Of a stretch of 64,000 bases of DNA, positions 2,547-58,912 are shown one piece after another. Both the position numbers and the translations under genes were made by a program. The stretch is from an uncultured Bacilli bacterium (lineage in GTDB: Bacteria > Bacillota_I > Bacilli_A > RF39 > UBA660), in assembly GCA_934096605.1 (NCBI GenBank), contig CAKOMI010000001.1, forward strand, positions 11,776 through 75,775, read 5' to 3'. Positions within the stretch are counted from its first letter, which is position 1; each line of letters opens with the position of its first letter. The notes under the pieces were generated by a model that was not told where the DNA came from, ran no database searches, and saw only the letters and a list, made by a program, of their open reading frames with translations.

Positions 2547-2680
2547 TTTATAAGAAAATACGCTGTTTGTGTAGATATAAAATAATACAATTACTATTCT
2601 TCTTTTATAGAGAAAGATTGATTAGTCTTTCTTTTTTCGTAGTTTCATGGTACTATTTTATAGTAGGAAAGAGGCTAAAT

Positions 2681-5600
2681 ATGAATAGGAAAAGGACATT
2701 GTTGATAGTAATAGTATTTTTATTGGCTGTTAGTGTAATAGGTGCTTCATATGCCTATTTTGCAGCGACCACAAGTAATAAAGGTAATGATGAAATAACA
2801 GAAATAACTACGGAAGAATTAGGAAGTATTAAGTGGGAAGGTACTAAGGTTTATGAAAGTGGTGATTCCTTACCTGGTGAAATAGGAATTCAGACTTTTA
2901 AAGTATCTAAAAATAGTGATAATGGAAAAGGCATTTATGAAATAGACTTAGAAGGAATTATTGATGAAGCATTTAATGAAGACGTTTTGATAAGTTTATA
3001 TAAGACTACTGAACCTGATAAAAATTATGTTAAAGTAACAGAAGGTGAAAGTACAATTACAGGTGATGATGATACCAAAATGTATTATAAAGAGGATAAG
3101 TTACAAGCAGTAGGAACACCAGAGTTAGTCTATGGACCAAGAGCTTTAGAAACAAAAGATCCAATCATTTTGTATCAAGCTGACTTTGATAATACTAATT
3201 TTCCCGAAACAACATTTTATTTAGTATATGAGTATTTAAATAAAGATAATCAAGATGCAGAGCAAGGTAAAAGTTTTAGTGGTACTATAAATGTAAGATT
3301 AATACTTGAAAAAATAATAGGCGAAGAAAGTGATATCGATATTACATATACCTCTAATAGAAATGATTATGTAAATACAGATGAAACACTTACTATAACA
3401 GCTACAAGTGAAAAATATAATATAGCACGTTATAGTTTTGATAATATTATCTATACACCAGTAGATAATCCAAGTAAAACAGTAACAATAACTAAAACAT
3501 ATACTGAAGAAAAAGATAATATCATTTATTTTAAAGATGACGTTGGTAATACTAAAAGTAAAACACTAGATTTATTCTTAGATAAAACTGGACCTAGTAT
3601 TACTGCTAAAACAACTTTGGAATGGGATAAAACTAATACGATAAGTATTACTTTAGAAGATGAGAAATCTGGGTTAGCTGGATATGCTTTAACAGAGACT
3701 GAAACAGACCCTAGCGAATGGACAAGCATTACTGGAAAAAGTACAACTATAGCAAAAGACGTTACAAGTAATAAAAAATATTATGTATATGCTAAAGATG
3801 TTTTAGGTAATATTAGTCATAAAGACGTTGAGGTAAGTCATGTTGATGAAACTGCACCAGTAATTAATGAGATAAATGAGCAGGAAAATTATGGTGCCAC
3901 TAGTGTGATTTCTGTTAGTGTTAAAGATAATGAAACTGGTATAGTAGGTTATGCCTTTACAACTACAAATGAAGAACCGACTGAGTGGACAAGTGTTGAT
4001 AATGTTATAACTGAAGAAAAATATACGTATGAAGCTTCTAGTAATGGAACAATTTATTTTTGGGTTAAGGATAGAGTTGGTAATATTACTAGTAAACCAA
4101 TAAATGTTACAAAGGTTGATACAACAGCTCCAACTATTACATTGAGTTTAAGTGATGAATTAACTTGGACCTCTTCTAAAACATTAACAATGAATTTTAG
4201 CGATGATGAATCGGGACTTTTGGGATATAAAGTGACTCGTGATGATTCTGAGCCAACTGAATGGTTGAGTATAACTGGTTTTAAGATAACTAAGACTGAA
4301 ACAATTATCGGAAATGGCTTATATTATATATGGGTAAAAGATAAGGCGGGATTAGTTACTTGTGTAACTAAATTTGTGTCATACGCTGATTCAGAAAAGC
4401 CAGTTGCTAGTATGAAATTAACGTCAACTAGTGACTCTATAACTATTGATGCTAGTTCTTCTATTGATACTGAAAGTGGAATAGTGTCATATGAATATAG
4501 TTTAGATGACATTCATTATTATTATTCTATGAATCCAATATACACTTTTACAGATTTAGCAATAGGTGAATATACAGTTTATTTGAAAGTTCGTGATAAA
4601 ACTGGTAATGAAGGTTTTAGTAAAATGAATGTTGGTGTTTATCAAACATTTACAAATGAGCTTAAAACTCTTGCAAGTACAGATACAACAAATTTAATGG
4701 CTGATGATTATGAAAATTTAAGATATGTTGGTGATAACCCTAGCAATTACGTAAAAATAGGGGATAGTACGCTTGGTTTTGATTTGTATGAATTTTATTA
4801 TAATGGTGAAAAACAAGGAAATGAATTAATGTATTCGGAGGAATGTAACCAATTACTTAGTGGGTACATGGACATGATGGATTATAATGCTACATGTGAA
4901 CTAGCACATTCTTATAATGAACCAATTTTGTGGCGGGTTATTGGAGTTATAAAAGACGTAGATGATGGTAATGGTAATAAAAGTGATCGTGTTAAATTGA
5001 TTAGACAATTTCCAATTGGCAATTATTCATGGGATACTAGTTTGAGTGCCGTAAATGGTGGCTATGGTGTTAATGAATGGAGTTTAGCTGATATAATGAA
5101 ACTATTAAATCCTGGCTATGAAAATAATAAAGATAAAGAGCGATACAATACTGAAGTTACCGTTAATAATAGCTTGTTTTGGAATAAAGAAAGTGGATTA
5201 TGTTTTACCTATTCTAATAATACTGTTGGTACTAGTTCTGATGGTGGTAGTATGTGCGATTTTAAACAAAATGGGTTGTCTGATGAATTAAAAAGTATGA
5301 TTGATGCTGCTGTATGGAATACAGGTGCTATTACAAATTTGAGTAGTTTGACAAGCAGTTTTTATGAACAAGAAAGAAGCACAAGTAATGGTAAAATTTG
5401 TACTAGTGGTAACTATTGTAATGATACAATCGGAAGAACTTCTAGCTGGACTGGTAAAGTTGGTTTAATGTATCCAAGTGACTATGGCTATGCCATAGGA
5501 GGAAGTAGTAGAGATAAATGCTTAAAATCAGTTACATTAGATAAATGGAAATCAAATAATGATTGTAGTAATGGTAACTGGCTGCTTAATGTTAGTGAAG

Positions 5601-5794
5601 AAGGAGCAACCATGACACCTGGTGCCGCGTCTAATTATGCTACAAATGTTTATTCTATTAGTACTAGTGGTTATGCATATTCAGGCTATGCTTATTATAA
5701 ACACGCTATAAGTCCAGTAGTCTATTTAAAGACTAATGTTAAAGTTACTGGGGGAGATGGTTCAATAGACAATCCCTTTACTTTAGAAAATTGA
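2681..5794 (+). CDS. large secreted/surface protein, paralog A: N-terminal signal anchor, Ig-like repeats, conserved Cys-containing C-terminal domain
   Basis: An ATG with a GGAAAGAGG RBS is followed by K/R-rich residues and a hydrophobic segment. That segment ends SYAYFAA. Four to five repeats of about 95 aa carry D-x-T-A/G-P-x-I, SGL/I-x-GY and EWTS motifs. The last 380 aa or so are homologous to the C-termini of the ORFs at 27968, 29507 and 57095. The stop is TGA. Confidence 0.8.
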   Translation: MNRKRTLLIVIVFLLAVSVIGASYAYFAATTSNKGNDEITEITTEELGSIKWEGTKVYESGDSLPGEIGIQTFKVSKNSDNGKGIYEIDLEGIIDEAFNEDVLISLYKTTEPDKNYVKVTEGESTITGDDDTKMYYKEDKLQAVGTPELVYGPRALETKDPIILYQADFDNTNFPETTFYLVYEYLNKDNQDAEQGKSFSGTINVRLILEKIIGEESDIDITYTSNRNDYVNTDETLTITATSEKYNIARYSFDNIIYTPVDNPSKTVTITKTYTEEKDNIIYFKDDVGNTKSKTLDLFLDKTGPSITAKTTLEWDKTNTISITLEDEKSGLAGYALTETETDPSEWTSITGKSTTIAKDVTSNKKYYVYAKDVLGNISHKDVEVSHVDETAPVINEINEQENYGATSVISVSVKDNETGIVGYAFTTTNEEPTEWTSVDNVITEEKYTYEASSNGTIYFWVKDRVGNITSKPINVTKVDTTAPTITLSLSDELTWTSSKTLTMNFSDDESGLLGYKVTRDDSEPTEWLSITGFKITKTETIIGNGLYYIWVKDKAGLVTCVTKFVSYADSEKPVASMKLTSTSDSITIDASSSIDTESGIVSYEYSLDDIHYYYSMNPIYTFTDLAIGEYTVYLKVRDKTGNEGFSKMNVGVYQTFTNELKTLASTDTTNLMADDYENLRYVGDNPSNYVKIGDSTLGFDLYEFYYNGEKQGNELMYSEECNQLLSGYMDMMDYNATCELAHSYNEPILWRVIGVIKDVDDGNGNKSDRVKLIRQFPIGNYSWDTSLSAVNGGYGVNEWSLADIMKLLNPGYENNKDKERYNTEVTVNNSLFWNKESGLCFTYSNNTVGTSSDGGSMCDFKQNGLSDELKSMIDAAVWNTGAITNLSSLTSSFYEQERSTSNGKICTSGNYCNDTIGRTSSWTGKVGLMYPSDYGYAIGGSSRDKCLKSVTLDKWKSNNDCSNGNWLLNVSEEGATMTPGAASNYATNVYSISTSGYAYSGYAYYKHAISPVVYLKTNVKVTGGDGSIDNPFTLEN

Positions 5795-27858: not shown

Positions 27859-27897
27859 ATGAGATTAATTAAAAATAGGTTGGGGGGGGGGTTCTAG
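27859..27897 (+). CDS. upstream uORF MRLIKNRLGGGF* terminating just after the G10 tract
   Basis: The ATG at 27859 reads through the G-run as GGG x3 and stops at TAG 27895-97. With G9 it would fuse to the main ORF. Confidence 0.4.
   Translation: MRLIKNRLGGGF
27882..27891 (+). repeat. G10 homopolymer, a putative slipped-strand phase-variation tract
   Basis: Ten consecutive G residues in a genome of roughly 28% GC. They lie between the upstream ATG and the paralog B ORF. Confidence 0.85.
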
Positions 27898-27967: not shown

Positions 27968-29287
27968 GTGTTATTTAGTATGTTAGCATTATCTTGTATG
28001 TACTTATATAAAACATATGCGGTGTTTACAGAAGAGAAACACTTTAATGTAATCAATGGAACTGTTCAAGATCCAGGAGATATTTATTTTGCATATTATG
28101 TAGATAATACAATAACAAGGGAAATGCCTAAGAAAGGAACAGGCTATACATTAGATATCGAAAAAAGCAATTGTACAAATGGAGTAACAGTAGGTTGGAA
28201 TCAAGATAAGTGGACAGCTCTAGTTAACTATGAAAACTATAATGCCACTGATTATACAAGAACAAAATGTAATTTGTATTTTAAACAAGTAACATATTGC
28301 GATTTGCATTCCGAGACAATGGCTTGTCAAATAACAAAGTTGGCAACAACAGAAACTACAAGCTTAGCCATAGATGACTATGGCAATACAAGATATATAG
28401 GAGCAGATCCAAACAACTATGTAAGCGTAGATGGTGATATATGGCGTATCATCGGTGTTATGAAGGACATAGATGATGGTACAGGTAATAAAAGTGACAG
28501 GGTAAAATTAATAAGAGCTGATTCAATAGGTGATTATTCATGGGACACAAGTGAAAGTTCTGTAAACGAAGGATATGGAGTAAACGAATGGAGCCAAGCA
28601 GATTTAATGAAATTATTAAATCCTGGCTATGAAAGCGTGACAGTAGGTGGCTCATTATACTGGAATAATGGAACAGGCACATGCTATAATAACAGAGCTA
28701 ATGTAGCTGCTAGTTGTAATTTCACAAGTATGGGTATCAGAGAAAAATTAAAAACACTAATAAGTGATGTCGTATGGAACACAGGCAGTCAAGGAACAAA
28801 TAATTATCAAAGCACTGGTGGAGGATTAGTAAAACATTTCTATACCTATGAAAGAGGTAATAATACTGGCAAAATTTGTTCAAGCGGCAACTATTGCAAT
28901 GACTTTGTGACAAGAACAACGACATGGACAGGAAAAGTTGGCTTAATGTATCCAAGCGACTATGGCTATGCCACAAGTGGAGAAAGTATAACAAACCGAG
29001 CAACATGTCTGAATACATATTTAAATAACTGGGGTAGCAGTAGTGTAAGTGACTGCAAAAATGGTGATTGGCTATTTAATAGTAGCAGTTCCCAATGGAC
29101 ATTATCGTCAGGTGCTTACTCTTCTGTTGCTGACTTTGTGTTCTTTGTGCATAGTAGTGGAATTATCAATTTTGATTATGCATATGACACTAATGCAGTT
29201 CGTCCTGTTGTTTACCTTTTGTCATCAGTAAAAATAGTATCGGGTGATGGTTCTTCTTCAAATCCATATGTCTTATCTGGCAGCTAG
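27968..29287 (+). CDS. surface protein paralog B with the conserved C-terminal domain; the 5' end may extend to ATG 27859 after a -1 G slip
   Basis: The ORF-track ORF opens at GTG 27968. Upstream in frame, and free of stops back to TAA 27866, lies ...GGSSNKDKIELQVFREPNKKRKIILITV. The C-terminal 320 aa are homologous to the other three paralogs (WRIIGVMKDIDDGTGNKSDRVKLIR, GVNEWSQADLMKLLNPGYE, ICSSGNYCND, TWTGKVGLMYPSDYGYA, VRPVVYL...SGDGSSSNPY). Confidence 0.8.
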   Translation: MLFSMLALSCMYLYKTYAVFTEEKHFNVINGTVQDPGDIYFAYYVDNTITREMPKKGTGYTLDIEKSNCTNGVTVGWNQDKWTALVNYENYNATDYTRTKCNLYFKQVTYCDLHSETMACQITKLATTETTSLAIDDYGNTRYIGADPNNYVSVDGDIWRIIGVMKDIDDGTGNKSDRVKLIRADSIGDYSWDTSESSVNEGYGVNEWSQADLMKLLNPGYESVTVGGSLYWNNGTGTCYNNRANVAASCNFTSMGIREKLKTLISDVVWNTGSQGTNNYQSTGGGLVKHFYTYERGNNTGKICSSGNYCNDFVTRTTTWTGKVGLMYPSDYGYATSGESITNRATCLNTYLNNWGSSSVSDCKNGDWLFNSSSSQWTLSSGAYSSVADFVFFVHSSGIINFDYAYDTNAVRPVVYLLSSVKIVSGDGSSSNPYVLSGS

Positions 29288-29397: not shown

Positions 29398-29436
29398 ATG
29401 AGATTAATTAAAAATAGGTTGGGGGGGGGGTTCTAA
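29398..29436 (+). CDS. upstream uORF MRLIKNRLGGGF* (second copy)
   Basis: The ATG at 29398 reads through the G10 tract and stops at TAA 29434-36. Confidence 0.4.
   Translation: MRLIKNRLGGGF
29421..29430 (+). repeat. G10 homopolymer, second putative phase-variation tract
   Basis: Ten consecutive G residues, in the same context as 27882-27891. Confidence 0.85.
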
Positions 29437-29506: not shown

Positions 29507-30805
29507 ATGTTGTTTAGTATGTTAGTATTATCTTGTATGTACTTATATAAAACATATGCCGTGTTTACAGAAGAAAAACACTTTAATGTGATAAATGGTG
29601 AGGTGCAAGATCCAGGAGATATCTATTTTGCTTATTATGCAGATAATACAATAACAAGGAGTATGCCTAAGAAAGGAACAGGCTATACTTTAGATACCGA
29701 AAAAAGTAATTGTACTAATGGAGTCATACCAAAATGGGATAATGGCGGTTGGCAATTTATAGGTGATTATAGTGATTATAATGCAACAGATTACACCAGA
29801 ACCAGATGCAATTTGTATTTTAAAAAAATAGATATAACGGCTGTTGATTATATTAAAGAGTTGGCTAAATACGATACAGAAACACTTGCTACAGATGAAG
29901 CTGGAGGTAATGTTAGGTATATAGGAAAATCTCCTGATAATTATGTAAATATTGATGGCGATATATGGCGTATCATTGGCGTTATGAAAGATATAGATGA
30001 TGGTACAGGAAAAAAGAGTGACAGAGTAAAATTAATAAGATCTTCTTCAATAGGAAAATATTCATGGGATAGTAGTGATTCAAAAGTTAATTATGGCAAG
30101 GGTGTTAATGAATGGAGTCAGGCCGATTTAATGAAACTTTTAAATCCTGGGTATGAAAGTGAGTCAGTAGGAGGCTCATTATATTGGAATGGCAAGTCGG
30201 GTACATGTTATAGTGATCAAAAAAATATTACAACAAGTTGTGATTTTACAAGTACAGGCATAAAAGATAAGTTGAAAAGATTAATAGGTAATGTTAATTG
30301 GGGGCTTGGGTCTGTTGATGGAGTAACTTATACATTTGCTAATATTTCTACCATTAAGTCATATGAATTTGAACAAAGTACTAATACGGGTAAAATTTGC
30401 GATGGGACGTATCAAGGAGGTATATACTGTACAGACACAGTAATAAGAACAACAACCTGGACCGGAAAAGTAGGCTTAATGTATCCTTCTGATTATGGTT
30501 ATGCGACAAGTGGTGGTAGTACAATTGATAGAGCAAAATGTTTAAAAGCTGCGATGCATTCTTGGAACAACGATTTGAATTTTTGCTATGAAAATAACTG
30601 GTTATCATGTGGCATTGATGAATTTACTTTAACTCCATCTCCTAGACCTGAATTTGATTATGATATTTTTTCTATTCATAATAAGGTTATTGATAGTTAT
30701 AGTGCGAATGCCTACATAAATGTTCGCCCTGTAGTATATTTAAAACCATCTGTATCTATTCAAAGCGGAGATGGCTCAGAAAATAGTCCTTTTATACTAG
30801 AATAA
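29507..30805 (+). CDS. surface protein paralog C with the conserved C-terminal domain; the 5' end may extend to ATG 29398 after a -1 G slip
   Basis: It has the same architecture as paralog B. The first 70 or so aa are nearly identical to B. The middle region is divergent. The C-terminal domain is conserved. Confidence 0.8.
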   Translation: MLFSMLVLSCMYLYKTYAVFTEEKHFNVINGEVQDPGDIYFAYYADNTITRSMPKKGTGYTLDTEKSNCTNGVIPKWDNGGWQFIGDYSDYNATDYTRTRCNLYFKKIDITAVDYIKELAKYDTETLATDEAGGNVRYIGKSPDNYVNIDGDIWRIIGVMKDIDDGTGKKSDRVKLIRSSSIGKYSWDSSDSKVNYGKGVNEWSQADLMKLLNPGYESESVGGSLYWNGKSGTCYSDQKNITTSCDFTSTGIKDKLKRLIGNVNWGLGSVDGVTYTFANISTIKSYEFEQSTNTGKICDGTYQGGIYCTDTVIRTTTWTGKVGLMYPSDYGYATSGGSTIDRAKCLKAAMHSWNNDLNFCYENNWLSCGIDEFTLTPSPRPEFDYDIFSIHNKVIDSYSANAYINVRPVVYLKPSVSIQSGDGSENSPFILE

Positions 30806-30885: not shown

Positions 30886-30906
30886 AATATAGAAAGGTTT
30901 TTGTAT

Positions 30907-31455
30907 ATGAATAAAAAAGGTTTTGTGTTTATTGAAACTATAATAGTTATATCAATACTTTTAGCATCTTTGATGATTGTGTATTCTTTATATGTTTCAT
31001 CTATTAATAAAGAAAATAAAAGATTAAGATATGATGATCCAGTTAAATTATATCAAACGTTTTATATGAAACAATATTTAAATAGTTTTCGTCTTAATGA
31101 ATTAGAGAAAAATATTACTAATGAAAATCCATATATTAATATATATGGACAAAGTGATTTATTTGGTGGATCTTTTAGTAATGAAAAAAAGTTTTTTGAA
31201 AGAATTACAGATGAACTTAATATTGAAACAATTTTACTTACTACTTACGATGTGTCTTTATTAACTGATTGCAAAGAAAATAGAAATATGCTTTGTACTA
31301 ATAATAATTTAATCGAGTACTTAAATACTTTAGATAATGATGGAAAAAGTGGCTATAGGTTAATTATTGAGTATAAAGAACAGTTGAATGGTAAGAAATG
31401 TGAAAATAAAAAAGATTGTTATTCTTTCTATTCAAATGTATGGGTAGGTGATTAA
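30907..31455 (+). CDS. type IV prepilin-like protein (pilin or pseudopilin)
   Basis: The N-terminus MNKKG|FVFIETIIVISILLASLMIVY is a class III signal with G|F and Glu at +5. The C-terminal part has paired cysteines. Confidence 0.75.
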   Translation: MNKKGFVFIETIIVISILLASLMIVYSLYVSSINKENKRLRYDDPVKLYQTFYMKQYLNSFRLNELEKNITNENPYINIYGQSDLFGGSFSNEKKFFERITDELNIETILLTTYDVSLLTDCKENRNMLCTNNNLIEYLNTLDNDGKSGYRLIIEYKEQLNGKKCENKKDCYSFYSNVWVGD

Positions 31456-32060
31456 TGATGAAAAGTAAGGGATTTACATTAGTAGAAATTATTGTAAGTG
31501 TAGCACTTATTTCTATTGTGTTACTTTTATTATTCCAATTAATGACTGATATGGAGTATGATTCTTTAACTTCTATGTTTGCTAGTGATAATCAGGTGAA
31601 TAGAGCGACTATCATAAAAAGAATTGACAAGGATTTAATGGATTATGGTCTTAAAAGTATACCTAGTATTAACAATATTACTAATGGTAAACAAATTAAG
31701 CTTAGTTTTAGTAATGGTAGTAGTAAAGATATTATTGTAACTTCTAGTACACTTACATATGATGGGGAAAGTTATACAGTTTCTTCTGGTGGTTCTTATG
31801 ATATTAATAATATAAAGATTGTATCTATACCTAGTAATTCAGAGAAACTTTGTTCTTATATGTTAAATATTGATACAAATAACGATGGTGTATGTGATGC
31901 GAACTGTGGAACTAATGAGAGTAATATGACGAAGAAAAATGATAATTATGTATATTGTCCTATTTATCAAGCTATAAAAATAGTTATACCTGTTTTGTTT
32001 AGTGAAGATGATGTGGCACTTGATGATATAGAAATATTTTATATTGGAAAATTAAGTTAG
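31455..32060 (+). CDS. type IV prepilin-like protein (pilin or pseudopilin)
   Basis: The N-terminus MMKSKG|FTLVEIIVSVALISIVLLLLFQLM is a canonical prepilin signal. Cysteines are present in the C-terminal region. Confidence 0.75.
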   Translation: MMKSKGFTLVEIIVSVALISIVLLLLFQLMTDMEYDSLTSMFASDNQVNRATIIKRIDKDLMDYGLKSIPSINNITNGKQIKLSFSNGSSKDIIVTSSTLTYDGESYTVSSGGSYDINNIKIVSIPSNSEKLCSYMLNIDTNNDGVCDANCGTNESNMTKKNDNYVYCPIYQAIKIVIPVLFSEDDVALDDIEIFYIGKLS

Positions 32061-32128
32061 ATTATAGCTTAATTTTTTTCTTTTACTTTTAAACAAATGT
32101 ATGTTATTATGTTGGTGGTGATTTAAAA

Positions 32129-32683
32129 ATGTATAATTATATAGTTGGAAAAATAACAGATATAGAAGCTAGTTATATAGTACTAGAGTGTAGTGGGATA
32201 GGATATCAAATTTATGTTTCTAATCCTTATCAATTTGAAATTAATAGTGAAACTAAGGTATATGTATATACACAGATAAAGGAAGATGAACATAATTTAT
32301 ATGGTTTTAAAACTAAAGAAGAAAAGGAATTGTTTTTGAGACTTATTAATGTTAAAGGGGTTGGGCCAAAGCTTGTGATGCCAATGCTTGCAACTGGTAG
32401 TGTTAATGGGATTATTGACGCGATAGATAGAGAAAATATTTTATATTTAAAGAAATTTCCTAAAGTAGGAGAGAAAGTGGCAAGACAAATTATTCTTGAT
32501 TTAAAAGGTAAACTTGCTAAAACAGGTGATACGCCTAGTATTGGTGGTTTTGAAGAGTTAGTAAGTGTCTTAGAAGGACTTGGGTATAAAACGGCTGATA
32601 TTAAGAAAATACTACCTAATTTAAATATAAATGATGAGATAGAGGTGCAAGTAAAAGAAGCATTAAAATTATTACTTAAATAG
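32129..32683 (+). CDS. ruvA: Holliday junction DNA helicase RuvA
   Basis: It is 184 aa with an OB-fold N-terminus and HhH motifs ([12 protein letters not shown]). Confidence 0.9.
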
Positions 32684-32691
32684 GAGGATAT

Positions 32692-33699
32692 ATGGAAGAT
32701 GAAAAAATATTAGAAGCTGAAGAACAAGAGATAGATAACAGCTTACAAAATATTAGACCACAAAGTTTAGATGAATATGTTGGACAAAAAGAAATTACTG
32801 ATAATTTAAGAGTATTTATTCAAGCAAGTAAAATAAGAAATGAATCGCTTGATCACGTGCTTTTATATGGACCACCCGGTTTAGGTAAAACAACGCTTGC
32901 CCACATTATAGCTAATGAACTTGGCGTTGGTATTAAGACAGCATCAGGTCCTTCAATTGAAAAAAGCGGGGACTTGGCTGCGGTTTTATCAACACTTGAG
33001 CAAGGTGACGTATTGTTTATTGATGAGATTCATCGGATGCCTAAATTTATTGAAGAAATACTTTATCCTGCTATGGAAGACTTTGAAATGGATTTAGTTT
33101 TAAATAATGATGGTAAAAGTAGAAATATAAAAATTGATTTACCACCATTTACTTTAGTTGGGGCAACTACTAGGGCTGGTGATATTTCATCACCACTAAG
33201 AGATAGATTTGGTATTATTTCTAAATTACAATATTATACAGAGGATGAATTATTACAGATAGTTACAAGAACAAGTAAAGTACTTAATATGCCAATTGAT
33301 GAAGATGCTGCGAGATTAATTGCTAAACGTTGTCGTAAAACGCCAAGAATTGCCAATCGTTTGTTTAAACGTGTACGTGATTTTGCTTTAGTAAGTGGGG
33401 CAGATAAAATAGAATATGATATGGCTAACGAATCTTTAAAACGCTTAAAAGTAGATGAATATGGTCTTGATTCCATTGATATTGAATACTTAAAAAGTTT
33501 AATTACTAAGTTTAATGGCGGCCCTGTTGGTGTTGAAACAATCGCTACTAGTATAGGTGAAGAGGTTTCAACAATAGAAGATGTTGTAGAACCATTTTTA
33601 TTGCAAGAAGGCTTTATTAAAAGAACACCAAGAGGACGTATGGCCGAAGAAAAAGCATATGATCATTTAAAGATTGATCACATGACTTCACTATTTTAA
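32692..33699 (+). CDS. ruvB: Holliday junction DNA helicase RuvB
   Basis: It has the Walker A motif [11 protein letters not shown] and the RuvB sensor motifs. Length is 335 aa. Confidence 0.95.
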
Positions 33700-54027: not shown

Positions 54028-55302
54028 ATGTTTGTTGATGAAGTAAAAATGGAACTTTATGCTGGTCGTGGTGGCGATGGCTGTACGTCTTTTAGACGAG
54101 AAAAATATATTCCGATGGGGGGGCCTGATGGTGGTTCTGGTGGTAAAGGGGGCGACATTATTTTTGTAGCATCTAAAGATTTAAAGACCTTAGTTGATTT
54201 AAAGTATCACCGAATTATGAAAGCCGATAAAGGAATGAATGGTAAAGGAAAAAATAGAAAAGGAAAAGATGCTGATAATATTGTAGTTAAAGTACCACTT
54301 GGCACAACTGTTATAGATGATGATACAGGACTTGTGATGGCTGATTTGACGCATGATAAAGAAGAGTTAGTTGTGGCAGAAGGTGGACGCGGAGGCCGTG
54401 GTAACGTAGCTTTTGCAACACATGAAAAACCAGCACCAGAGTTTTCAGAGCTTGGTGAACCTGGAGAGGTTAGATATATTAAATGTGAATTAAAAGTGTT
54501 AGCAGATGTGGGATTAGTCGGAATGCCAAGTGTTGGCAAAAGTTCTATTTTGGCGGCTGTTTCTAGTGCGACGCCTAAAATTGCGGCCTATCATTTTACA
54601 ACTTTAACGCCTAACTTAGGGGTAGTAAATCTTAAAAATGGTCAAAAATTTGTTCTAGCTGATTTACCAGGAATGATTGAAGGAGCTAGTGAAGGTGTTG
54701 GTCTTGGTGATCGCTTTTTAAAACATGCCAAAAGAACAAGAATTTTAGCTCATGTTCTTGATATGGCTGGTAGTGAGGGAAGAGATCCGATAGATGACTA
54801 TGAAATTATTAGAAAAGAAATAGTTAATTATAATGATGATTTAGCTAATAAGTTAGAAATAGTTGTAGCCAATAAAATGGATATGCCAGACTTTAAAGAA
54901 AATTTAGAAAGATTTAAAGCTAAATATCCGGATAAACAAGTATATGCTGTAAGTGCAATAAATAATGAAGGCTTAGATGAATTAATGAATGGGCTTAGTG
55001 CTTCTTTAGAAAAAATTGAAAGTACAGATTTATATACAGAAGAAGATTATGAAAGTACCATTGTTTATAAATTTAAAAATGAAAAACCATATACAATTAC
55101 AAAAGAGAATGGTATATGGGTATTAAGAGGAAAAGAAATTGAAAAATTATTTGCTATGACAAGATTTACAGAACAAGAAGGAGTTATGCGTTTTGCAAGA
55201 AAATTAAAAGGTATGGGCGTTGAGGATGAGTTAGAACGACTTGGAGCAAAACGAGGCGATGAGGTCCAAATTTTAGATTATATTTTTGAATTTAAAGATT
55301 AG
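54028..55302 (+). CDS. obg: GTPase Obg
   Basis: It has the Gly-rich N-terminal domain (GGPDGGSGGKGGD) and the G1 motif GMPSVGKSS. A C-terminal OCT domain is present. Confidence 0.95.
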   Translation: MFVDEVKMELYAGRGGDGCTSFRREKYIPMGGPDGGSGGKGGDIIFVASKDLKTLVDLKYHRIMKADKGMNGKGKNRKGKDADNIVVKVPLGTTVIDDDTGLVMADLTHDKEELVVAEGGRGGRGNVAFATHEKPAPEFSELGEPGEVRYIKCELKVLADVGLVGMPSVGKSSILAAVSSATPKIAAYHFTTLTPNLGVVNLKNGQKFVLADLPGMIEGASEGVGLGDRFLKHAKRTRILAHVLDMAGSEGRDPIDDYEIIRKEIVNYNDDLANKLEIVVANKMDMPDFKENLERFKAKYPDKQVYAVSAINNEGLDELMNGLSASLEKIESTDLYTEEDYESTIVYKFKNEKPYTITKENGIWVLRGKEIEKLFAMTRFTEQEGVMRFARKLKGMGVEDELERLGAKRGDEVQILDYIFEFKD

Positions 55303-55625
55303 TCTTTAAACTTTAAAACTGAACCAACATGTAAAGAGGTACCAACATTTTTAGGTAACTCTAGAATGCTGGTTTTTTTTGAGTCATCACTTACTTTGAC
55401 AATTTTGTTTTTAGGAACGTCTAAATAAATAAAGATAACTTGATTGTCTTTATTTAGACCAAATACATTAATATTTTCTTTCATAAAAAAGGTATGAATC
55501 GCGTTACAATTGGGAAAAAGAATTCCTTTTTGAATATTTTTTTGGCCCATAAGGCCTAGTAGTCTTGTTTTAAAATCTTTGGCAATAGTAATTTCAATAT
55601 TTTTATTATTTAATTTTAATGTCAT
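55299..55625 (-). CDS. DUF192 domain protein
   Basis: It has the DUF192 signature LLGLMG...HTFFM. Length is 108 aa. Confidence 0.55.
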   Translation of the reverse strand: MTLKLNNKNIEITIAKDFKTRLLGLMGQKNIQKGILFPNCNAIHTFFMKENINVFGLNKDNQVIFIYLDVPKNKIVKVSDDSKKTSILELPKNVGTSLHVGSVLKFKD

Positions 55626-55707: not shown

Positions 55708-56994
55708 TTAAATATCTAGAGTTTCAATAGATTTATTTTCATCAAGTTTTTTGCCATAGATGGCATTTTTAAGTTCTTTTTGTTCTTCACCTAAATCATC
55801 TTCGACGTCAATTACTCTTAAAACTTCCTCAAAACTGGTTAAGCCATTGATAACTTTGATTAAACCATCATCAAGTAAGCTAGTAGTATTGCCACTTTTG
55901 TAGATCAATTCTCTTATTTGTTCTTTTGGAGTGTTATTTACAATAGCGTCTCTGATATCTTGGTTAAGTAGTAAAACCTCATGAAGAGCAATACGTCCTT
56001 TATAACCTTTGTAACATGAATCACAACCAACAGGTTTATATATTTTTTCAATATCCATGCCAAGCGCTTCTTTAAAAACTCTTTTTTCATAAGGAGTTGT
56101 TTCTCTTTCGGAACGACATTTAGGACATAGTTTTTTACATAGCCTTTGGGAGATTATAGCTTCTAGAGCTGAACCTAGTAAGTATCTTTCTACATCCATA
56201 TCAGTAAGTCTTTCAATAGTGGTAAGCGAGTTATTAGTGTGGATTGTTGATAATACTAAGTGACCAGTGATAGAGGCACGAACAGCAATTTTGGCTGTTT
56301 CACTGTCTCTTATCTCACCAATCATGATGATATCAGGGTCTTGTCTTAAGATTGAACGAAGTGCACTAGCAAAAGTAAGACCAATTTCACTCATAACTTG
56401 TACTTGGTTAATACCAGATAGTTTCATTTCAACTGGGTCTTCAACAGTAATAATATTTCTTTCAATTGTATTTAGAGCTTGGAGCATAGCGTAAACAGTA
56501 GTTGATTTACCAGTACCGGTAGCACCAGTAACTAAGATAATACCATTTGGTTTAGCCATTGTTTTTTTGACTTTTTCTAAGTTTTTATCAGAGAAACCCA
56601 AGGATTCTAGTGTACTTAGTGTTGAACTATAATCTAAAAGACGAATAACGACCTTTTCACCATAGACAATTGGTAGGGTAGAAACACGAAGATCTAAGTC
56701 TTTGCCATCAACTTGCATTTTAATCGCGCCGTCTTGCGGAATACGTGATTCAGTGATATTCATACCAGAAATAATTTTAACTCTGGTTACTAAGTTTTTC
56801 TTAACAGCCTCTGGAACAGTTGCATAAAGTATCAATTCACCATCAACTCTAATACGAACATTTAAAATTGTTGGCGTAGGATCAAAGTGAATATCACTTG
56901 CTCTTTTTCTAGCAGCATCAATAAGCATATTATTAACTATATCTACTATAGGTTGATTTTGATAATCATATTCTGTAAACATACTAGTCACCAA
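55708..56994 (-). CDS. type II/IV secretion ATPase (PilB/GspE/ComGA-like)
   Basis: It has the Walker A motif VTGATGTGKSTT, Asp/His boxes and the tetracysteine motif CPKC...CDSC. Confidence 0.85.
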   Translation of the reverse strand: MVTSMFTEYDYQNQPIVDIVNNMLIDAARKRASDIHFDPTPTILNVRIRVDGELILYATVPEAVKKNLVTRVKIISGMNITESRIPQDGAIKMQVDGKDLDLRVSTLPIVYGEKVVIRLLDYSSTLSTLESLGFSDKNLEKVKKTMAKPNGIILVTGATGTGKSTTVYAMLQALNTIERNIITVEDPVEMKLSGINQVQVMSEIGLTFASALRSILRQDPDIIMIGEIRDSETAKIAVRASITGHLVLSTIHTNNSLTTIERLTDMDVERYLLGSALEAIISQRLCKKLCPKCRSERETTPYEKRVFKEALGMDIEKIYKPVGCDSCYKGYKGRIALHEVLLLNQDIRDAIVNNTPKEQIRELIYKSGNTTSLLDDGLIKVINGLTSFEEVLRVIDVEDDLGEEQKELKNAIYGKKLDENKSIETLDI

Positions 56995-57094
56995 TCCTTT
57001 TATTCTTTAATAATTTTATCATGAATTGATAAGGAATACAATTCTATTAATGATAAAAGTTTTTTCTTGACAATTCTTTTGGGAGGAGGGTACA

Positions 57095-58912
57095 ATGATG
57101 ACATATATTAGAATAGAGGTATTGGTTATGAATAGTAAGAAAAGTTGGTCAAAAAAAATATTATTAGCTCTTGGCATATTAATAGGGTTAGTAGGCGTAA
57201 GTTATGCTTTATGGCATATAACACTTAGTGGTACAAATAATAATACAATTACAGCCACATGCTTTAATGTGTCTTTTACAGATCAAAATAATATTAGTAT
57301 TGAAAAAGCCTATCCTTTATTAGATGAAGAAGGAAAGAAATTAACACCTTATGAATTTACAATAACTAACAACTGTGATACATACGTTAAATATGATATT
57401 AACTTAGAAATATTAAATAATTCAACATTAACAAATATGGATTACATAAAATTAATGTTAGATGATGAGACACCTGCCTTAGTATCAAGTTATGATGTAA
57501 CAACAAAAACACTTAGTAATGCAAGTACAGCCTATAAAATTAAAATGAGTTATTTAAATGCTAAAGAAAGTAAAACCTATTATTTAAGATTATGGTTAGA
57601 TGAAAATGTTACTGGTGAAACAGAAGGAGTCCAAAATAATACCTTTATTTCTAAGATAACAGTAAACGCAAGTTATGCTGAAAGTGCTCCTGAATATTGT
57701 GAATTAAATCCAAATACAGCTGCATGTCAAATTGAAACATTAGCTGAAACTGACACAACTAATTTAGCAGTAGATGACTATGGCAATACAAGATATATCG
57801 GAGCGAATCCAAATAATTATGTCAGAGTAGAAGGAGAAGAATATACAAGTGATGTTTATTATGGTTATAACGGTTCTGATACTTCTTCTTATAGGGAGTA
57901 TTCTAGTTTAGATAAATGCACTCATTCCAGTACTTATTCTGCTAATTGTACATTAGTACCTAAAGGTACACCAATTTTATGGCGTATTATCGGTACAATG
58001 AAAGATATAGATGATGGTACCGGCAACAAGAGTGACAGATTAAAATTGATAAGAAATGATTCAATAGGCGAGTATTCATGGGACACAAGTGACTCAAGTG
58101 TTAATAGTGGCAATGGTGTCAATGAATGGAGCCAAGCAGATTTAATGAAGCTCTTAAATCCAGGTTATGAAAATGAAGAAATTGGTGGTTCATTATATTG
58201 GAATAATAAAAATGGTACATGCTATTACTCTTCCAATAATAAAACAACAAGTTGTGATTTCACAAATAGAGGCATAAATGGTAAATTGAAGTCATTAATA
58301 GGTAATGCCGTATGGAATACTGGTGCAAATGATGGAACAACGTATACGTATAAAAATATGAATGCTTCAGAATTTTATCAGTTAGAGAGAAGCAAGAATA
58401 TTGGTAAAATTTGCACAAGTGGCGATTATTGCAATGACTCAGTAGAAAGAACAACGACATGGACCGGTTTAGTTGGACTTATGTATTCGAGTGACTATGG
58501 ATATGCGACAAGTGGCGGCAGTACTACAGACAGAGCAACGTGTTTAAATGGTAATCTTAGTCATTGGAGTAAAAATTTTGAGTCTAACACTAATCAACAA
58601 ATTGTTACTGGATTTGAAGATTGTGTAATAAATAATTGGATATTTGATTCGTTTCTGCCACCACAGTGGACTATTTCATCAGCAAATGAGGTGTATAGTA
58701 AGGCAACTCAAGTATTTCTTGTTTGGCAATGTGTTTCCCCAAGTCCTGCAAGTAATGCTAGGCGTAAATATAACATAGATAATGATGGCCTTTCGGAAGA
58801 GACCACTTCTGGTATTGGCGCTGATGTTTTTCCAACTGTATATTTAAAATCATCTGTAAAAATTGCGTCTGGAAGTGGTTCAAAAGAGGACCCATTTGTT
58901 TTAGGAAATTGA
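57095..58912 (+). CDS. surface protein paralog D with the conserved C-terminal domain
   Basis: It has a strong GGAGGAGGG RBS. A basic-TM N-terminus ends VSYALW. A unique N-terminal module of about 190 aa is followed by the C-terminal domain. That domain is near-identical to B at DNA level over DDYGNTRYIG. The stop is TGA. Confidence 0.8.
   Translation: MMTYIRIEVLVMNSKKSWSKKILLALGILIGLVGVSYALWHITLSGTNNNTITATCFNVSFTDQNNISIEKAYPLLDEEGKKLTPYEFTITNNCDTYVKYDINLEILNNSTLTNMDYIKLMLDDETPALVSSYDVTTKTLSNASTAYKIKMSYLNAKESKTYYLRLWLDENVTGETEGVQNNTFISKITVNASYAESAPEYCELNPNTAACQIETLAETDTTNLAVDDYGNTRYIGANPNNYVRVEGEEYTSDVYYGYNGSDTSSYREYSSLDKCTHSSTYSANCTLVPKGTPILWRIIGTMKDIDDGTGNKSDRLKLIRNDSIGEYSWDTSDSSVNSGNGVNEWSQADLMKLLNPGYENEEIGGSLYWNNKNGTCYYSSNNKTTSCDFTNRGINGKLKSLIGNAVWNTGANDGTTYTYKNMNASEFYQLERSKNIGKICTSGDYCNDSVERTTTWTGLVGLMYSSDYGYATSGGSTTDRATCLNGNLSHWSKNFESNTNQQIVTGFEDCVINNWIFDSFLPPQWTISSANEVYSKATQVFLVWQCVSPSPASNARRKYNIDNDGLSEETTSGIGADVFPTVYLKSSVKIASGSGSKEDPFVLGN

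Follow-up and report, generated by a model that had tools for sequence, protein, structure and literature searches.

Analysis of a 64-kb stretch of DNA (the window) from an uncultured gut member of the Bacilli with a genome of about 28% GC raised the question of whether a gene encoding an ATPase of type IV filaments is functionally linked to the divergently oriented gene beside it. The neighboring gene encodes paralog D, a member of a protein family that is represented in the window by paralogs A to D. The original prediction had described the ATPase as an orphan of the PilB/GspE type that shares a 100-bp divergent region with paralog D. After the pilin genes next to paralogs B and C, it had counted this pairing as a second physical link that ties the paralog family to components of type IV filaments. 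Comparative analysis did not uphold this second link: the adjacency was present in 0 of 24 relatives, D homologs lay at loci without filament genes, the promoters of the two genes appeared to be separate, and D lacked a prepilin leader. The explanation that we consider likely is that the ATPase is the extension motor of a dispersed filament system and that its pairing with D is a species-specific gene order without a functional link.

According to this explanation, the system would consist of the PilB-like ATPase, a PilC-like platform protein with two T2SSF domains, the prepilin peptidase PilD, and a pair of pilins, to which some species would add a short major-type pilin. Such a filament system would be typical for a clade of uncultured low-GC gut Bacilli. 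As judged from family membership, the ATPase hexamer would hydrolyze ATP and, through the platform, drive peptidase-processed pilins from the membrane into the filament. The ATPase would form an autonomous one-gene unit with a conserved promoter and leader of its own, in a clade that often has the system's genes scattered, and in the sub-lineage of the window this unit would sit near the rplU/obg region. Paralog D would have landed beside it with a portable promoter cassette in this species only, and the two genes are predicted to be transcribed from separate, back-to-back promoters. Their export routes would differ too, with the Sec pathway serving D and the prepilin peptidase and platform serving the pilins. 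As for the role of the filament, either DNA uptake or adhesion is conceivable, and we lean slightly toward a Com-like DNA uptake pseudopilus.

The ATPase and the region between it and paralog D

The two genes and the region between them comprise the following predicted features:

55708 to 56982, minus strand: PilB/GspE-class type IV filament extension ATPase (424 amino acids; Pfam, NCBIfam, PDB sequence search, and motifs)
56983 to 57045, minus strand: promoter and leader of the ATPase (read by eye; layout kept in orthologs)
57054 to 57127, plus strand: portable promoter/leader cassette of paralog D (promoter scan; identity to paralog leaders elsewhere)
57128 to 58912, plus strand: paralog D (594 amino acids from the ATG at 57128; the open reading frame [ORF] opens at 57095)

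The longest ORF of the ATPase gene runs from 56994 to 55708 on the minus strand and encodes 428 amino acids from a TTG codon. Public gene calls start at the ATG at 56982; the exact 424-amino-acid product was found in 39 blocks of a public assembly collection, and an exact-product look-up of the 428-amino-acid TTG form in the public assembly collection returned no block. Comparison with Pfam revealed a match to T2SSE (PF00437; E = 1.1e-127; 426 bits, cut-off 24.9) above the gathering threshold, which covered profile positions 5 to 370 of 370 and spanned the N2 and C-terminal ATPase domains. A motif scan located the Walker A motif GATGTGKS (residue 153), the Asp box EDPVE (residue 181), the Walker B motif DPDIIMIGEIRD (residue 215), the His box TGHLVLSTIH (residue 239), and the tetracysteine zinc pair CPKC (residue 286)/CDSC (residue 320). 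The tetracysteine zinc motif separates PilB/GspE proteins from PilT. In a PDB sequence search, GspE, PilF, and PilB were matched over the full length with approximately 340 to 360 bits, compared to approximately 120 bits for PilT retraction ATPases. The ORF, the strand, the motifs, and the Pfam match all agree with the secretion ATPase of the original prediction. Scores against the NCBIfam models for GspE (TIGR02533; 500 bits, cut-off 630), PilB (TIGR02538; 484 bits, cut-off 676), and ComGA (NF041000; 269 bits, cut-off 300) stayed under the curated equivalog cut-offs. An N1/MshEN domain is lacking, the match beginning at position 105 of the GspE profile and at position 176 of the PilB profile. 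Judged from its sequence, the protein is an ordinary and intact assembly motor of the PilB class for type IV pili.

The ORF-to-ORF gap between the ATPase and D is exactly 100 bp; with the better-supported start codons (ATG 56982 for the ATPase and ATG 57128 for D), it is 145 bp. The putative ATPase promoter was read by eye, and the consensus scan passed over it because its -35 element is weak. It consists of the -35 element TTGTAT (57041 to 57036), a 17-nt spacer, and the TGn-extended -10 element TAAAAT (57018 to 57013), with the leader AGAATAAAAGGATTGGTGA between the -10 element and the ATG. The layout (T)ATAAT - AGAATAAA(A)GG.TTG.GTGA - ATG was found upstream of the ATPase orthologs at loci L003, L004, L005, L007, L011, L014, and L015, whose contexts are unrelated to each other. 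In addition, the region upstream of the ATPase gave a weak blastn match to the upstream region at L004.

On the opposite strand, the consensus scan identified the promoter of D as the best of the region (11/12), with the -35 element TTGACA (57067 to 57072), an 18-nt spacer, and the -10 element TACAAT (57091 to 57096). The spacer holds the degenerate poly-G sequence GGGAGGAGGG at 57081 to 57090, and a ribosome-binding site, AGAGG, lies at 57115 to 57119. From 57054 on, the sequence is 83 to 89% identical to paralog leaders at L098 (next to asnS) and L106 (flanked by ftsK and tig). The ATG at 57095 overlaps with the -10 box, so the most likely start of D is the ATG at 57128 behind AGAGG, which also fits the N termini of D homologs. 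Interpretation of GGGAGGAGGG as a Shine-Dalgarno sequence for a start at 57095 was rejected; it corresponds to the remnant of a decayed tract in the promoter spacer.

Since each half of the region occurs alone elsewhere, one in front of ATPase orthologs and the other in front of paralogs with other neighbors, the 100-bp region appears to consist of two promoter modules, each complete in itself and facing away from the other, with no shared regulatory region. The 100-bp gap given by the original prediction was thus correct for the ORFs, and its description as shared was not. The same distribution bears on designed co-regulation, in which an operator shared by both genes would switch the ATPase and D together without any need for their products to interact. 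This would fit the distance of about 25 bp between the two -35 elements, and D is the sole paralog with a decayed, fixed poly-G tract and an 18-nt spacer, a combination that might be suited to constitutive expression next to a housekeeping-like motor. However, both the ATPase half and the D half are found alone with other neighbors, and no repeat or palindrome was identified between the halves, for which no dedicated search was run. Designed co-regulation is therefore regarded as very unlikely.

Gene order at the ATPase and pilin loci of related species

ATPase orthologs with 60 to 75% identity were found in 24 related species (L003 to L026), beyond which identity was at most 52%. All 24 are metagenome-assembled genomes labeled Bacilli or Tenericutes, a few of them apparently mislabeled. 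The window proteins and a hidden Markov model (HMM) of the paralog family were mapped onto the 10-kb flanks of the 24 orthologs, and 56 loci of more distant bacteria from the same scan (L027 to L082) served as the outgroup. The ATPase protein of the window is present in metagenome assemblies from the human gut, those of the Hadza among them, and is identical in many independent samples.

D was adjacent to the ATPase on every same-species contig that was read (L001, L002, and 20 similar places), and a D ortholog beside the ATPase was found in 0 of the 24 other species within the 10-kb flanks. The comparative check thus limited the adjacency, which a conserved pairing would extend to relatives, to a single species. 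A filament partner (pilC-pilD and/or pilins) lay within 10 kb of the ATPase at 11 of the 24 loci; the remaining 13, several of them on short contigs, showed none. As its own counter-scenario, the original prediction had envisaged relatives with the ATPase in a complete com/pil operon and an adjacency specific to the strain. This counter-scenario was borne out by the 11 loci with a nearby filament partner and by the confinement of the D adjacency to one species.

At L003, L014, L015, L021, L023, and L025, a prepilin peptidase (A24_N_bact plus Peptidase_A24) and a platform protein of 520 to 640 amino acids with two T2SSF domains are encoded downstream of the ATPase and convergent with it. The order dnaG-rpoD-trmK-yqfQ-pilC-pilD followed by a convergent ATPase was found at L003, L083, L086, and L089 to L094. 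A two-gene pilin operon is divergent from the ATPase at L021 to L025, and single pilins occur at L007, L019, and L024. The distance from the ATPase to pilC is at most 10 kb at 7 of the 24 clade loci (8.4 kb at L009) versus 52 of the 56 outgroup loci; therefore, the dispersed filament gene set is a trait of the clade. Clade platform proteins were generally large (approximately 490 to 640 amino acids), with an N-terminal extension before the two T2SSF domains (L003 12953 to 14521, L021 12194 to 14122, and P0121 to P0240), and some of them gave a faint T2SSF_N match.

The ATPase is located 3.5 kb from obg at L007, 4 kb from a DUF192-obg pair at L008, and next to rplU at L010. In the window, the ATPase is followed by a gene of the DUF192 family:

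55299 to 55625, minus strand: DUF192 gene downstream of the ATPase (Pfam DUF192, E = 1e-7)

From these positions, the obg-DUF192-ATPase arrangement of the window looks ancestral for the sub-lineage, and D looks like a newcomer. At L008, DUF192 and obg adjoin each other without the ATPase; DUF192 is probably the ancestral partner of obg rather than of the ATPase, and the orientation it shares with the ATPase would be accidental. Pfam and NCBIfam comparison of the flanking genes (DUF192 and D) agreed with the earlier statement that neither neighbor of the ATPase is a pilus or secretion component.

The pilin genes next to paralog C were also recognized correctly in the original prediction:

30901 to 31455 and 31455 to 32060, plus strand: two prepilin genes (184 and 201 amino acids; N_methyl/TIGR02532 matches)

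Both follow paralog C, and the motif scan found class III leaders in the window solely at 30919 and 31470. The leaders (KKG/FVFIE and SKG/FTLVE) keep Glu5, and both proteins gave weak ComGE/ComGF matches. The pair is located 24 kb from the ATPase and directly before ruvA, a position comparable to that of the L007 pilin, and it has the same order as, and weak similarity to, the pilin pair divergent from the ATPase at L021 to L025. The genes are invariant across samples, and the exact product of the second was found in 135 blocks of the public assembly collection. The pair likely represents the substrates of the filament system powered by the ATPase. Filament genes recur beside ruvA/ruvB (window 30901 to 33699, L007 8251 to 12353, and L011 8285 to 11509): at L007 the ATPase and a pilin lie between ruvB and ruvA, and the L011 ATPase is two genes away from ruvB. 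The recurrence suggests an older, clustered filament arrangement at that site in the sub-lineage.

Several ATPase-linked pilins of the relatives are very large and modular (L022 7337 to 9406, L019 11781 to 13634, L023 8250 to 9389, and L024 12935 to 14209). The L022 protein (689 amino acids) carries five Listeria-Bacteroides (Flg_new) repeats behind its prepilin leader, and the L024 protein (424 amino acids) is pilin-like, lacks Glu5, and resembles the end of the paralog domain in its last ~67 residues (hhalign probability 75%). Presence of the paralog domain in these large pilins was rejected for L019 and L023, and at L024 the match is confined to the ~67 C-terminal residues.

Paralog D and the case for a filament link

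Paralogs A (2567 to 5794), B (27968 to 29287), C (29507 to 30805), and D (57095 to 58912) have a C-terminal region of 300 to 400 amino acids in common, with 42 to 60% identity. D consists of a basic and hydrophobic N terminus, the motif VSYALW, a beta-sandwich at approximately residues 40 to 185, and, at the C terminus, a conserved domain of about 400 amino acids. Public metagenomes hold more than 5,600 homologs of the family, which is unannotated in Pfam; searches with D and with the shared domain against Pfam and NCBIfam revealed no family match. In all 120 homologs inspected, the N terminus is first basic, then hydrophobic over about 20 residues, and leads into the motif [ST]-Y-A-x-[FW]; no class III leader (G-F-x-x-x-E) was detected in D or in these 120 homologs, and D gave no N_methyl match. 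Classification of D as a type IV pilin or pseudopilin was rejected, as the hydrophobic core precedes the conserved motif and the class III leader is absent. The paralog N terminus indicates a putative Sec-type signal or signal anchor, not a prepilin. Assignment to the TasA/SipW type, prompted by the motif SYAYF, was likewise rejected, since the SipW-cognate, TasA, and Peptidase_M73 models gave no match at E ≤ 10. The TasA signal has an aromatic residue at P2' (PMC10269814), and the likeness of the paralog motif to TasA is limited to an aromatic residue in this position relative to the predicted cleavage site.

AlphaFold models (pLDDT, 74 and 78; pTM, 0.71 and 0.84) showed a beta-sandwich at the N terminus and an alpha/beta domain at the C terminus. 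A fold search with the full-length D model returned only generic beta-sandwich matches (TM-score of at most 0.33). With the domain-only model (57692 to 58912), one significant PDB fold match was obtained, to 9qa6, the IgA peptidase of Thomasclavelia ramosa (Foldseek E = 4.4e-6; probability 1.00; 360 aligned columns), for which TMq was only 0.32 at an rmsd of 10 Å. Weaker fold matches of the C-terminal domain included canonical C-type lectins. At the sequence level, no PDB match to the paralog domain was found, and the paralogs lack the HExxH catalytic motif. In the 9QA6 enzyme, the N-terminal domain is described as an enlarged C-type lectin-like domain on which catalysis does not depend (PMC12237041); the match probably falls on this N-terminal domain. 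With moderate confidence, the models point to D as an exported, possibly lectin-like binding protein.

The D-type homologs closest to D in other species are found amid housekeeping genes: between spoU and rimP-nusA (P0002), between a glycosyltransferase gene and asnS (P0114), and between ftsK and tig (P0102). No filament gene was found within 8 kb of these three loci.

Several observations weigh against a working dispersed system with D as a chance neighbor. The assignment of the ATPase stops at the extension-ATPase class and gives no subtype, since the protein scores below the GspE, PilB, and ComGA cut-offs. At window scale, the ATPase is an orphan as originally described: tblastn detected no gene for a PilC platform protein or a prepilin peptidase across the 64 kb. 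The five PilC candidates that were followed up (P0133, P0132, P0136, P0125, and P0162) all belong to other species; pilD lies beside pilC at four of these five loci, and the ATPase does so as well at three. A working filament system in this organism is thus a prediction. At L011, a true but distant family member identified by HMM adjoins the ATPase, downstream and convergent. Finally, in a random order of about 55 gene units of the window, both filament loci would touch a paralog with a P of ~0.01, and at least one with a P of 0.20. The value of ~0.01 is nominal and post hoc. It presupposes independence of the two adjacencies, an assumption that breaks down if a rearrangement split a single ancestral adjacency, and it ignores that both types of accessory gene sit at junctions of housekeeping operons. 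Because they have no cross-species support, the adjacencies are taken as gene order in a species with a dense family, in which five members lie within ~70 kb (four in the window and one beyond its right end).

The absence of pilC and pilD from the 64 kb is what a true orphan or relic would also show, that is, an ATPase that is decaying or has been recruited elsewhere after the platform and peptidase were lost in the species. No PilC of the window species was found among the best 120 homologs of the closest relative's platform protein, and the 13 of 24 related species without a partner in the flanks at hand point in the same direction. Decay is at odds with the ATPase itself, in which all catalytic and zinc motifs are intact, which is identical across many independent samples, and which is 60 to 75% identical across species, clustered or solitary alike. 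Its own promoter and leader are conserved, both pilins keep canonical leaders with Glu5 that are invariant across samples, and relatives with long enough contigs keep pilC and pilD, sometimes kilobases away (L009). A relic is therefore considered unlikely.

The L011 neighbor and the two adjacencies in one window (nominal P of ~0.01) would be expected if the filament machine displayed or released the paralogs, either as pilus-associated adhesins or as cargo of a pseudopilus like that of the type II secretion system (T2SS). Such a functional link could also draw on the L024 pilin-like protein, in which the final ~67 residues of the paralog domain recur, and T2SS cargo is likewise first exported by Sec. 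However, D adjoins the ATPase in none of the 24 species, nor do filament genes accompany the three paralog loci seen from the other side, and the HMM found no family member at the pilC-pilD-ATPase loci L083 to L094. The paralogs have no prepilin leaders, the promoters appear to be independent modules, and the probability estimate is post hoc and treats the adjacencies as independent. Moreover, the hosts are apparently monoderm (peptidoglycan genes and no outer membrane components were seen), which would leave no obvious barrier for a T2SS-like step to cross. Taken together, we judge a functional link to be most unlikely. Weak family members were also found near the ATPase at L004 and L006 by HMM, and a 741-amino-acid protein after pilC-pilD at L087 was rejected as a family member by the same model.

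An extended version would unite the filament genes of this species and its phase-variable, possibly lectin-like paralogs in one surface module. The B/C-pilin and D-ATPase pairs would then be halves of an ancestral 'ATPase | paralog-pilin-pilin' unit split by paralog recombination, the filament would display the paralogs or set them free, and the switch of D would have been lost once D was tied to a constitutive motor. We hold this version to be very improbable. The separate placement of D beside the ATPase as a species-specific gene order remains the preferred explanation.

Poly-G tracts and comparison with known systems

A search for G/C runs of at least 8 nt in the window revealed only two, a G10 at 27882 to 27891 at the 5' end of paralog B and a G10 at 29421 to 29430 at the 5' end of paralog C. 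Each tract starts 23 nt past the initial base of an ATG (27859 and 29398, respectively). As sequenced, B and C are out of frame with this upstream ATG; G9 would give proteins of 476 and 469 amino acids with a basic N terminus, and with one G removed the full-length ORFs of B and C align with homologs from residue 1. An exact-product look-up of paralog C as an ORF from the ATG at 29507 found no match in the public collection. Among six same-species sequences, the C tract was an in-frame G9 in two (L104 and L105, with a called product of 468 amino acids) and a G10 in four (including L101 to L103), and the B tract was a G10 in all six.

The second kind of tract lies in promoter spacers. At L098, L099, and L100, which represent one species in three samples, and at L106, uninterrupted tracts of G9, G10, G8, and G10 (at positions 5439, 5163, 5159, and 8041, respectively) result in spacers of 18, 19, 17, and 19 nt. 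In D, the tract reads GGGAGGAGGG in the window, L001, and L002 and is thus degenerate and fixed. D itself was rejected as a homopolymer-switch gene, as none of these three sequences has an uninterrupted tract, and D looks locked because its poly-G tract decayed. These sequences point to a large group of surface proteins in gut Bacilli of this kind with two candidate kinds of homopolymer switch, one transcriptional (promoter spacer) and one translational (after the start codon); the basis is tract-length polymorphism between assemblies, not switching itself. A literature search on homopolymer phase variation in these gut lineages found nothing specific.

Further observations concern other family members. 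The longest ORF of paralog A opens at a TTG at 2567, and an N terminus of the family type (MNRKRTLL…GASYAYF) starts at the ATG at 2681 behind the ribosome-binding site AGGAAAGAGG. Paralog A bears a PKD-like domain (residues 612 to 683 of the long ORF). The fifth paralog, which is A-like and 1,138 amino acids long as called, lies just past the right end of the window (L001 1 to 2475) after relA and dtd, and it has a C9 run (G9 in the sense of the gene) near its 5' end (L001 2443 to 2451).

Possible mobile elements were noticed near some of the filament loci. Tandem 430-amino-acid ORFs with identical listed N termini at L006 (14326 to 15618 and 15866 to 17158), ~4 kb from the ATPase, are probably insertion sequence copies. 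In one species, a REP_ORF2-G2P rolling-circle replication gene and small unannotated genes lie a few kilobases from pilC-pilD-ATPase (L089 17595 to 21590 and L093 7832 to 8434); the same place at L091 has neither the REP_ORF2-G2P gene nor the run of small genes, and the stretch may be an integrated small element.

The pairing of ATPase and D is thus no argument for placing the paralog family in a type IV filament system. For annotation, the gene order of this clade means that pipelines relying on operon context will under-call its dispersed filament systems; a literature search for type IV pili in RF39 found nothing specific. The paralog family is of interest in its own right as a large, unannotated family with two kinds of candidate poly-G switch, whose tract lengths vary between human gut samples. 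The weak resemblance to a domain of the T. ramosa IgA peptidase hints at binding of host glycans or immunoglobulin; if the paralogs do bind these, they would be candidates for variable factors of host interaction in a section of the microbiome about which little is known. The one-module version, if true, would provide the Sec-type adhesins of a monoderm bacterium with a route that depends on a pilus.

Comparison with structurally characterized extension ATPases, EpsE from Vibrio cholerae (1P9R/4KSR), PilF from Thermus (5IT5), and PilB from Geobacter (5TSG), revealed likeness in the N2 and C-terminal domains and in all motifs. The window ATPase differs from the PilB/GspE/PilF proteins in that it lacks the N1/MshEN domain, scores below the equivalog cut-offs, and is encoded alone instead of beside pilC. 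The predicted system resembles ComGA and the ComG pseudopilus of Bacillus and Streptococcus in its apparently monoderm host, its short ATPase without an N1 domain, its small pilin set with weak ComGE/ComGF-like matches of both window pilins, and the dedicated prepilin peptidase of its relatives. Unlike that system, the ATPase has a ComGA score well under its GspE and PilB scores, there is no comGA-GG operon, and the platform protein of the relatives has 520 to 640 amino acids and an N-terminal extension.

For the paralog family, the IgA peptidase of T. ramosa is the closest structural counterpart, with a fold match to the C-terminal domain and a host in a related gut Bacillota lineage; the paralogs differ in having no HExxH domain, no sequence match, and a TM-score of 0.32. 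The vlp genes of Mycoplasma hyorhinis form a contingency locus with poly-A in the promoter, and Neisseria and Haemophilus have poly-G/C contingency tracts in promoter spacers or 5' coding regions. The poly-G tracts of the paralogs are alike in position, in the -35/-10 spacer (D-type) or just past the start codon (B and C), and in that their length varies between samples of the same species, altering spacer length or reading frame. D differs from these contingency loci in that its uninterrupted tract is lost, and the hosts of the family are uncultured gut Bacilli.

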